From assembly GCA_000004985.1 (NCBI GenBank), contig GG739416.1: a stretch of 1,467 nucleotides of DNA, one strand, 5' to 3'. Position 1 is the first letter of the stretch. The number at the start of each line of letters is the position of its first letter. The position numbers were made by a program, and so were the translations under genes. The stretch is from Naegleria gruberi. Lineage: Eukaryota. The notes under the pieces were generated by a model. It ran no database searches. It saw only the letters and a program-made list of their open reading frames with translations, and was not told where the DNA came from. Below are positions 1-1,467 of the stretch, in pieces.

Positions 1-1467
1 CATAGCGAGAACAATGAATTGGAAAACCTAAAACAGCAAACAATTCAAATGGTGGAACATTGTAAGAATGTAAATGGAGAGGTTATTGTGCCATTCTTTG
101 GTTATACTGGCGTGGGAAAGTCTCTGCTCATCAATCTTCTATCCAATTGTAAACTCATAACTGTTAAGAATGAAATGGACCTTGATGTTTTGGATTTTGA
201 AGATGCAAAGACTAAAGTTGGCCAAACTCTTGAATCAGAAACTTCTACACCAATATGTGTGAGAAATAATGATTGTGAATACATCATATTGGATTGTCCT
301 GGATTTTTTGATAACAGAGGCGATTTGACTCGATTAATGGTAAATCTATCCATTAGGTTATCAATTCAACAAGCTCTCCAAGTGAAAGGAATTGTAATTA
401 TGATAGATATTGATGATTTAATTAACAGGAGTTCAAAATTCAATGAAACTGCCTCATTATTTGGAACCATGTTGAAGGAAGATTTTCCAGAAAAGTCTAT
501 GATTGTTGTTATCAACAATAAGAAAGGTAACAAGGTCAACAGGTACACAGTTAACAAAGCTATTGAATTACAACTACAAGGAGCGAAATCAAGATGGTTG
601 AGATTAGCTCAACAGACTGCATCCTTTTTGAAATTTTGTTCTGATGGAGAGAAAGAATCTGCCAGCGTTAGATTTCTCAATTTACTTCATTCAAATCTTG
701 ACAGAGTATTCCTGTTAGATGTAAACAATCAAAATTCCATAGTAGAAATCAAAAAAGCAATTAATAATCTATGTCCTGTCAGTTGTGAATATTTTGAAAC
801 CAATACTTTCGATGAAACATGGAATAGATACAACAATGTTATCAGGAAGGTTATGGAAGAATCTATCAAGTTTTATGATAATTATGTAAACATCAAACGA
901 TTAATGGATCAACAAAAAACTAACATTGCTGAATTGAACACCAGAATTGAAAGTTATTCAGATAGGCTCAAAGAAATTCAAAAAACAAATATTGAGAAAG
1001 AGTCTGAGCAGGTTGATTATGGATTACAACGACTTTATTCTGAAAAGAAGGATGAAATCAAACGTCTTACTCAAGAATTGGATGCACTGAATTTATTAAT
1101 CAAAAAAACTCAGTTTTCAAGAGATGAATTGTTAAAGAAACAAAAGGAGCTTGATAGTGAAGAAGAAAAACAAATTTTCAAGGAGCAAATTAGTGAAAAA
1201 CGAAATTCTATTCTGGGATGGATTTCATATACTGCTAAAACCATTGAATATGATGCTCAATGTCCATTCAGGGAAGAAAAAACAATTACCACTGGAAAAT
1301 TACAAGAATCAAAGAAACATTCTTCAACTTATTATCACAAGTATTATTTTACTAATTGGGGAGAAGATGCTGAAATGAGCTTAATTCTTTTTGCAAAGAA
1401 AAAAGATCTTCCTGGTAACATAATTATGTCCGCAATTAATAGAAATGATTACAAAACATTGAGGAAG
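1..1467 (+). CDS. Internal fragment (partial at both ends, at least 489 aa) of a large multi-domain P-loop GTPase: AIG1/GIMAP-like (septin-like TRAFAC class) G domain followed by a long coiled coil
   Basis: Frame +1 is open for all 489 codons at roughly 1/3 G+C; a random open frame of this length is extremely unlikely (a hand estimate with ~7% stop probability per codon gives about 1e-15). All five other frames are broken by frequent stops. The translation carries recognisable GTPase motifs in the canonical order and spacing. There is no start or stop inside the window, so the gene continues upstream and downstream. Confidence 0.88.
100..123 (+). other. G1 / Walker A P-loop motif GYTGVGKS (GxxxxGK[ST])
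   Basis: Codons 34-41 of frame +1, ggt tat act ggc gtg gga aag tct, are read directly from the sequence. Next comes LLINLLSNC, matching the 'GKS-hLhN-Lh' helix typical of TRAFAC GTPases (Era, EngA, septin, GIMAP). Confidence 0.85.
241..258 (+). other. Candidate G2 / switch-I element TSTPIC (T-x-x-C signature of AIG1-type G domains)
   Basis: Codons 81-86 are act tct aca cca ata tgt. They lie about 12 residues upstream of the DxPG motif, the spacing seen in AIG1/GIMAP proteins. Which Thr is catalytic cannot be decided by eye. Confidence 0.45.
289..312 (+). other. G3 / Walker B motif LDCPGFFD (hh-D-x-P-G-h-F-D)
   Basis: Codons 97-104 are ttg gat tgt cct gga ttt ttt gat. DxPG preceded by hydrophobics (IIL) is the canonical switch-II start. 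The trailing G-h-F-D resembles GIMAP (DTPGLFD) and septin (DTPGFGD) rather than Ras-like DTAGQE. Confidence 0.8.
505..528 (+). other. G4-equivalent element VVINNKKG (degenerate [NT]KxD: Gly in place of the guanine-specificity Asp)
   Basis: Codons 169-176 are gtt gtt atc aac aat aag aaa ggt, a hydrophobic strand followed by N-N-K-K-G. This is in the position where GIMAPs have hhhFT[RH]K[DE]D and classical GTPases have hhhNKxD. The preceding 'ASLFG' parallels the GIMAP 'hFG' segment. The alignment is by eye only. Confidence 0.45.
886..1206 (+). other. Predicted coiled-coil region (~105 aa), E/K/Q/L-rich with heptad-like hydrophobic spacing
   Basis: Translation: ESIKFYDNYVNIKRLMDQQKTNIAELNTRIESYSDRLKEIQKTNIEKESEQVDYGLQRLYSEKKDEIKRLTQELDALNLLIKKTQFSRDELLKKQKELDSEEEKQIFKEQISEKRN. 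It is continuous charged/helix-favouring sequence with I/L/V/Y recurring at about 3-4 residue intervals and no Pro, and one Gly (in VDYGLQRL). Confidence 0.6.

Follow-up and report, generated by a model that had tools for sequence, protein, structure and literature searches.

A Naegleria gruberi gene fragment carrying a septin/AIG1-like GTPase module also found in protist-associated intracellular bacteria

Two papers from Aravind's group (Zhang et al., 2012, PMC3482391; Aravind et al., 2012, PMC3417536) describe "GIMAP-type GTPase" domains as effector modules in intracellular bacteria, Candidatus Amoebophilus among them; the first lists them together with U-box, OTU, lipase and SecA-like modules. 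Here we analyze a relative of these domains encoded on a 1,467-nucleotide (nt) stretch of DNA, hereafter the window, which constitutes one entire, tiny and unplaced scaffold of Naegleria gruberi (GG739416.1). We consider it probable that the window comes from the interior of an N. gruberi nuclear gene and encodes a helix, a septin/AIG1-like GTPase domain, a helical hairpin and a beta-sandwich that would continue into a linker and a C-terminal U-box, and that it represents a conserved module shared with protist-associated intracellular bacteria.

As far as the relevant passages of the 2012 papers describe it, the GTPase-hairpin-sandwich unit encoded by the window is what Zhang et al. (2012) and Aravind et al. 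(2012) termed the "GIMAP-type GTPase" effector module. The GTPase family is the same, with a direct homologue in Ca. Amoebophilus (P0016, annotated as a U-box protein) and many loci in Amoebophilaceae; its partners are those listed in the first paper (U-box, OTU, lipase and a SecA-like neighbor); and the bacterial homologues are likewise confined to endosymbiotic or parasitic bacteria. The N. gruberi copy differs in sitting in a eukaryotic nuclear genome. The passages on these modules in PMC3482391 and PMC3417536 make no mention of Naegleria copies, of which we found no report in the literature, nor do they mention the hairpin and beta-sandwich extension, which was defined here from structural models. 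Those passages had already described this GTPase family and noted its affinity to GIMAP, so current understanding is not overturned; the Naegleria copy is a newly recognized eukaryotic member.

Frame +1 of the window is a single open reading frame (ORF) of 489 codons (1..1467, + strand), open at both ends and free of stop codons, which at the local base composition would occur by chance with P ~1e-19. The remaining five frames contain 21–59 stops each and ORFs of at most 83 amino acids (aa), and an Rfam scan of the window recovered no RNA family. Frame +1 translates to a protein with 100% identity to the NCBI entry "predicted protein, partial [Naegleria gruberi]." That deposited model (P0001, 413 aa) spans Met59 to Pro471, leaving out the P-loop (residues 34–41) and the last 18 codons. 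In the two regions outside it (window 1–174 and 1414–1467) the frame is open and homologues align across both, and the annotated protein appears to lack G1 only because of the way in which the gene model was constructed. Compared with its orthologues, which are 766–787 aa long, the N. gruberi ORF is shorter by ~18 N-terminal and ~260–280 C-terminal residues, the latter including the U-box.

Word-indexed homology searches gave 2, 2 and then 28 matches, the 28 being mostly metagenomic fragments; words from coiled-coil and P-loop segments probably governed which candidates were chosen. The family was exposed when HMMER was run exhaustively over 1.84 billion representatives, with 546 relatives at E ≤ 1e-3. 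Many of these align with almost all of the query, and 40 of the best 151 span it from before residue 40 to beyond residue 440. The two closest relatives are a 766-aa protein from a eukaryotic contig (P0003; 36% identity, query residues 4–473 aligned with residues 22–491) and a 787-aa protein of Naegleria lovaniensis (P0004) named "U-box domain-containing protein." Full-length relatives consist of an N-terminal G domain (MMR_HSR1, 19–38 bits) and a C-terminal U-box; the latter was detected at 35–53 bits in P0003, P0004, P0007, P0008, P0009, and P0011, and lies at residues ~640–730 of both P0003 (48.1 bits) and P0004 (51.1 bits). Other Pfam partners were OTU in P0011 and ankyrin repeats in P0014 and P0018. 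A profile of the full-length family searched against the PDB was dominated by U-box matches, among them those of plant PUB12, Legionella LubX (E = 4e-11), and CHIP. LubX and GobX, both Legionella U-box effectors, belong to the same ecological setting as the bacterial relatives; to our knowledge, neither has a GTPase module. Judged from these sequence relationships, the window most likely covers the N-terminal part of a ubiquitin ligase with a GTPase-coiled-coil-U-box layout, and the relatives of that ligase are effector-like proteins of intracellular bacteria.

Conservation of the GTPase motifs was counted in a 41-sequence family alignment, in which G34, G39, K40, S41, T81, D98, and G101 are invariant (41/41) and which yields the family signature G(N)TGAGKST.INYLLG ... 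S-E-T-x-x-P ... (Y)CDCPGFxDNRG. The initial annotation had proposed an AIG1/GIMAP-type (paraseptin) GTPase from four co-linear elements, and all four are where it placed them in the + strand translation of frame +1, an occurrence far beyond chance: GYTGVGKS-LLINLL (residues 34–47), TSTPIC (residues 81–86, nt 241–258), IILDCPGFFD (residues 95–104, nt 283–312), and LINRSSKF...VVINNKKG (residues 140–176, nt 418–528). What these elements say about family membership varies from motif to motif. The P-loop or G1 motif, GYTGVGKS (residues 34–41, nt 100..123, + strand), follows the GxxGxGKS pattern, its fourth residue being Gly and not Asn, and is indeed GIMAP-like, in that the window and family versions (GYTGVGKS and GNTGAGKST) align with GKTGSGKSAT of GIMAP7, whereas Der/EngA has GRPNVGKST. 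In switch I (G2, S-E-T81-S-T-P, 235..252, + strand), the invariant threonine is T81 within the consensus S-E-T-x-x-P (S79 in 34/41 sequences, P84 in 29/41). The proposed T-x-x-C hallmark did not hold up, C86 being found in the window sequence only, with Y, F, V, or A at this position in relatives. The G3/switch II segment LDCPGFFDNRG (residues 97–107, nt 289..321, + strand) is the family hallmark, (Y)CDCPGFxDNRG, and is strongly conserved (D98 and G101 in every sequence, C99 in 37/41, P100 in 35/41, F102 in 38/41, D104 in 32/41, and R106 in 36/41). It includes the D-x-P-G-h-F-D hallmark as DCPGFFD, which is also like the DTPG motifs of Era/EngA and septins and is thus not exclusive to AIG1. 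The hydrophobic F102 occupies the position at which Ras has its catalytic Gln61.

The AIG1 conserved box (PGPHA..hLVh..GR[YF]TxEE) is absent; the window segment QALQVKGIVIMIDIDDLINRSSKFNE aligns positionally with GIMAP7 and shares with it only the strand and R143. This arginine (427..429, + strand), in the loop following strand beta4, is a candidate arginine finger, probably in the same loop as R103 of GIMAP7; the position is occupied by R in 27/41 and by K in 9/41 sequences, and the HMMER alignment with GIMAP7 puts R143 four residues from LGR103YT. The acidic G4 motif expected of AIG1 proteins (FT[RH]K[DE][DE]L) is not present either, the window reading VINNKKG. Its degenerate G4, NNKKG (residues 172–176, nt 514..528, + strand), has no Asp, and the family consensus is reduced to [TN]K, with an Asp two residues after [TN]K in only ~7–13 of the 41 sequences and canonical motifs in P0018 (TKAD) and P0128 (TKTD). 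The three eukaryotic sequences have NNKKG (window), NNKFN (P0003), and NDKTN (P0004), with Asp in none. Guanine specificity is uncertain because G4 is without this Asp.

Among Pfam models, MMR_HSR1 scored 27.1 bits on the whole window protein and 31.1–31.6 bits on the isolated domain (cut-off 21.9); RsgA and EF-Tu were sub-threshold, and AIG1, Septin, IIGP, and Dynamin_N gave no match to the window protein, whole or as the isolated domain, even at E ≤ 10. The above-threshold MMR_HSR1 match, the invariant G1, switch-I Thr and G3, and a confident structural model establish a TRAFAC-class GTPase domain. On the Pfam comparison proposed in the initial annotation, the outcome formally goes against an AIG1 assignment, MMR_HSR1 being the sole match on the window; we judge this comparison a weak discriminator because MMR_HSR1 is a short and generic G-domain model.

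A GTPase-only family profile searched against the PDB had GIMAP7 as its best sequence match (E = 1.5e-7), the only displayed alignment to run past the P-loop through both G3 and G4 (FVITKAEEK vs. LFTRKEEL) and into the following helices. Septins 3 and 9 and Cdc10 were aligned over G1–G3 at E ~5e-5, with GIMAP4, Toc33, EngB, and Era after them; Der/EngA aligned over the P-loop or weakly beyond, with scores inflated by its two tandem G domains. When 36 GTPase domains of the family were compared with Pfam (E ≤ 1), MMR_HSR1 matched all 36 (best E = 2.8e-9), Dynamin_N 32 (best E = 3.5e-8), AIG1 30 (best E = 1.1e-9), and Septin 10 (best E = 0.0014). The AIG1 (PF04548) gathering score of 27 bits was exceeded in P0022 (29.1 bits, model positions 3–205 of 212), P0148 (29.4 bits), and P0016 (27.6 bits, positions 3–206), in all of which MMR_HSR1 scored equally or slightly higher, and was not reached in P0170 (24.7 bits), L003 (20.4 bits), or P0007 (19.3 bits). 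Foldseek with the AlphaFold2 model of the window protein ranked Toc34 first (5.5e-6), GIMAP1 second (1.4e-4), and Toc33 seventh, and also listed FeoB, MnmE, GBP, HflX, and IRG proteins. In the classification of Leipe et al. (2002), all of these reportedly fall into one TrmE-Era-EngA-YihA-septin-like superfamily, and placement of the window domain in that superfamily is firm.

Within it, these data support AIG1/GIMAP/Toc (paraseptin) proteins and septins as the closest characterized relatives at the family level, in agreement with the name "GIMAP-type GTPase" chosen independently by Aravind's group. The family shares with AIG1/GIMAP/Toc34 the GxTGxGKS P-loop, the DxPGhxD switch II, a hydrophobic residue where the catalytic Gln would be, and a basic residue in the loop after beta4, probably the loop of GIMAP7 R103. 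It differs in its own signature (CDCPGFxDNRG), in a G4 reduced to [TN]K, and in what follows the G domain, namely a hairpin, beta-sandwich, and U-box, where GIMAP and Toc proteins have amphipathic or transmembrane helices. Septins (PF00735) resemble it across G1–G3, including a G3 context similar to DTPGFGD, and differ at G4, which is AKAD in septins. The original AIG1/GIMAP assignment survives as an affinity seen in family-level profiles and suggested by the Foldseek ranks, and not for the window protein itself, which has no PF04548 match, T-x-x-C, conserved box, or G4 Asp; the family stands beside AIG1/GIMAP as a divergent sister or fringe group rather than as a regular member, and the window copy is among its most divergent.

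The AlphaFold2 model of the window protein (mean confidence by predicted local distance difference test, pLDDT, 90.3) resolves the remaining layout, all of it on the + strand. An N-terminal helix (residues 3–24, nt 7..72) precedes the GTPase domain (residues ~26–262, nt 76..786), which belongs to the TrmE-Era-EngA-YihA-septin-like superfamily and is distantly AIG1/GIMAP/Toc-like. Between G4 and its final strand is a two-helix insert (residues 181–204 and 209–231, nt 541..693), into which the GIMAP7 alignment reaches. There follows a long antiparallel helical hairpin, or "stalk" (helices 272–328 and 335–384, nt 814..1152), with pLDDT mostly >90 and a dip at the turn (332–334); searches of the hairpin against Pfam, the PDB, and PADLOC returned only coiled-coil-type noise. 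The next domain is a compact, all-beta sandwich (residues 389–466, nt 1165..1398), which when modeled alone reached a pLDDT of 94. It matched no Pfam family, and its structural matches were generic sandwich folds, with no specific solved relative among them. The last modeled element, a helix (residues 471–488, nt 1411..1464) into which homologues align as far as residues 476–486, leads toward the missing linker and U-box. A single-sequence PDB search with the window protein gave nothing significant; its residues 211–318 (window 631–954) had a non-significant 108-residue match (E = 0.038) to the Legionella "Effector protein B" LepB (PDB 4jw1), a curiosity in view of the family's presence in Legionella-like bacteria.

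To survey the family's distribution we scanned one genome per GTDB species for loci, using a query alignment of 6 closer sequences. The 38 loci recovered are all bacterial and come mostly from protist-associated intracellular lineages; compared with the window, bacterial loci scored E of 1e-4 to 5e-17. They include Legionella, Coxiellaceae, and other Gammaproteobacteria; Amoebophilaceae and Cytophagales with several copies per genome; Ca. Odyssella, Holosporales, Caedibacter, Ca. Finniella, Rickettsiales, and Bacteriovoracia; and Chlamydiae, among them a Rhabdochlamydiaceae symbiont of Dictyostelium. Two further contigs, those of P0005 (Suf operon) and P0006 (HicAB), are clearly bacterial. The whole GTPase-hairpin-sandwich module is kept in bacteria, as in L010, which aligns with window residues 19–471. 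Bacterial fusion partners are U-box, OTU, lipase, ankyrin, or leucine-rich repeat (LRR) domains, for instance an N-terminal U-box in L025, Lipase_3 in L010 and L006, and LRR in L038.

Some bacterial members appear from their sequences to carry the module twice. In a 1806-aa ORF (L033, 3208–8628), the window G domain was matched at residues 330–460 and again at 1295–1390, and in L044 (6060–8885 and 11131–13263) P0006 has a second P-loop region at residues ~617–650, with another paralogue two genes downstream. At another locus (L001), on a contig that like that of P0002 offered too little length or content for taxonomic placement, the 1762-aa protein P0153 (560–5848) is directly followed by a 1248-aa SecA_DEAD-like protein (6088–9834), a neighbor that recalls the "SecA-like helicase-related domains" named among Amoebophilus effector modules in a passage of Zhang et al. 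(2012, PMC3482391). The viral contigs searched yielded no true relative, the only match being 32 residues over the P-loop, and a giant-virus origin was set aside on that result. PADLOC defense models likewise gave only weak matches, mostly to coiled-coil or P-loop segments (LeoC 15.8 bits, LmuB 22.9 bits, mad8 21.9 bits), and membership in a prokaryotic immunity system was rejected for want of a meaningful match. Neither setting envisaged in the initial annotation, a bacterial or phage immune effector or a eukaryotic expansion of immunity GTPases, fits a contig that is eukaryotic and Naegleria species with single or double copies.

The scaffold is tiny and unplaced, and apart from the three eukaryotic sequences all relatives of identified source are bacterial, so that it might be asked whether it is contamination of the N. 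gruberi assembly by a symbiont or food bacterium. The evidence from its closest relatives speaks otherwise. Both of them are eukaryotic. The N. lovaniensis orthologue lies on a 107-kb contig (L045, 7001–9461, PYSW02000062.1) among protein-kinase, MBOAT, and isocitrate-dehydrogenase (Iso_dh) genes, and its gene span exceeds the coding sequence by ~97 nt, which suggests one intron. A second copy in this species (P0152, ≥90% identity) lies on a different, 45-kb contig, giving N. lovaniensis at least two copies, and the contig of P0003 carries ERG4/ERG24 fragments adjoining it. In a neighbor-joining tree of 82 G domains, the window, P0003, and P0004 form one clade, recovered in 92/100 replicates. 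The GC content of the scaffold (~31%; 29–34%) agrees with the AT-rich Naegleria genome. Contamination is unlikely, and we give it scarcely any weight. With midpoint rooting, the eukaryotic clade lies five nodes deep beside members from Coxiellaceae, Rhabdochlamydiaceae, and Gammaproteobacteria. A single eukaryotic clade points to host-symbiont gene exchange, and its position fits one event, in either direction, between the Naegleria lineage and a bacterium; where branches are long, midpoint rooting is weak evidence.

Other readings concern the GTPase domain itself. It could be a ribosome-assembly GTPase of the Era/EngB/EngA (MMR_HSR1) type, since no Pfam model other than MMR_HSR1 passes its threshold on the window, this model matches every family domain tested, and metagenome pipelines had labeled some relatives EngB, Era, or RbgA. 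We think this improbable: EngB and Era matched over the P-loop only, whereas GIMAP7 and the septins aligned much further; the P-loop has Gly in place of the Asn of the Der/EngA GxxNxGKS motif; the protein contains no KH or other RNA-binding domain, and instead combines a hairpin and beta-sandwich with a partner domain of the U-box, OTU, or lipase type; and its spread is limited to protist-associated bacteria and Naegleria, where ribosome-assembly factors would be expected to be near-universal. A place among the dynamin/GBP/IRG-like large GTPases, with the hairpin as a dynamin-type membrane-remodeling stalk and RNF112 as nearest analogue, has about as slim a chance. It draws on the long helical hairpin after the G domain, on the Dynamin_N matches to 32 of the 36 family domains, and on Foldseek matches to GBP1, IRG, Fzo1, and RNF112 (9jjw, E = 1.5e-3) at E ~1e-3; yet most displayed Dynamin_N matches cover profile positions 1–26, which is the P-loop only, and the G domain is small (~235 residues) and without the large dynamin or GBP insertions. 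RNF112 (ZNF179) joins a GBP-like GTPase to a RING domain, and TRIM23 joins a RING to an ARF domain. Both thus resemble the family in that one polypeptide holds a nucleotide switch together with a RING or U-box that recruits E2, and differ from it in GTPase lineage, domain order, and intervening domains, which makes the likeness one of analogy and not homology.

It is also conceivable, although doubtful, that the Naegleria copies are degenerate pseudo-GTPases, or have switched nucleotide, and serve only as static scaffolds for an E3 ligase. The G4 Asp is missing from all three eukaryotic sequences, the segment after the last strand in the window (LLDVNNQ) deviates from the family consensus DVFDxGxS, and among the sequences tested the window alone had no AIG1 match at all. 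Nevertheless, all three retain an intact G1, switch-I Thr, and DxxG, and most bacterial members are also without the G4 Asp, pointing to a family trait and not to decay. Toc34, moreover, binds GTP despite a non-canonical G4.

Returning to the reading of the window as part of a nucleotide-regulated GTPase-U-box protein, a mechanism can be proposed by analogy. Once bound to nucleotide, the protein would dimerize or oligomerize across the G interface in the manner of GIMAP, Toc, and septin proteins, and there the conserved basic R143 after beta4, or R106 of switch II, might complete the active site of the partner; arginine fingers at this interface include R103 of GIMAP7 and R130 of Toc33. The hairpin would form a stalk, and a target or membrane would be bound by the beta-sandwich. 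Assembly would then juxtapose U-box domains, leading to recruitment of E2~ubiquitin (ubiquitin charged on its conjugating enzyme) and modification of nearby substrates. U-box ligases usually function as dimers. Several points weigh against this account. The window protein itself reaches no AIG1, Septin, or Dynamin model; the U-box lies outside the window and is attributed to N. gruberi from relatives that are only 31–36% identical; and with no Asp in G4, the protein may bind a different nucleotide or have poor catalytic activity. The arginine finger and the GTP-driven activation of the U-box stand as proposals.

The analysis gives a concrete identity to an unannotated "predicted protein, partial," and shows that a module thought to be confined to endosymbiotic and parasitic bacteria is also present in the nuclear genomes of free-living Naegleria. 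It adds to that module a confidently predicted beta-sandwich without known relatives. More tentatively, and as a possibility to which we do not yet incline, Naegleria may have intron-bearing nuclear genes for an entire GTPase-stalk-beta-sandwich-U-box protein, a type otherwise seen among the effector-like proteins that intracellular bacteria encode. These genes could be a domesticated bacterial effector, perhaps turned against intracellular bacteria, or could mark a heterolobosean source of the effector family, and the GTPase-hairpin-sandwich unit would then be a structurally uncharacterized class of nucleotide-regulated E3 ligase or effector scaffold. The Naegleria copies offer a clean case for gene exchange between amoebae and intracellular bacteria, and they raise the testable idea that the activity of a U-box ligase may be controlled by GTP-driven assembly.

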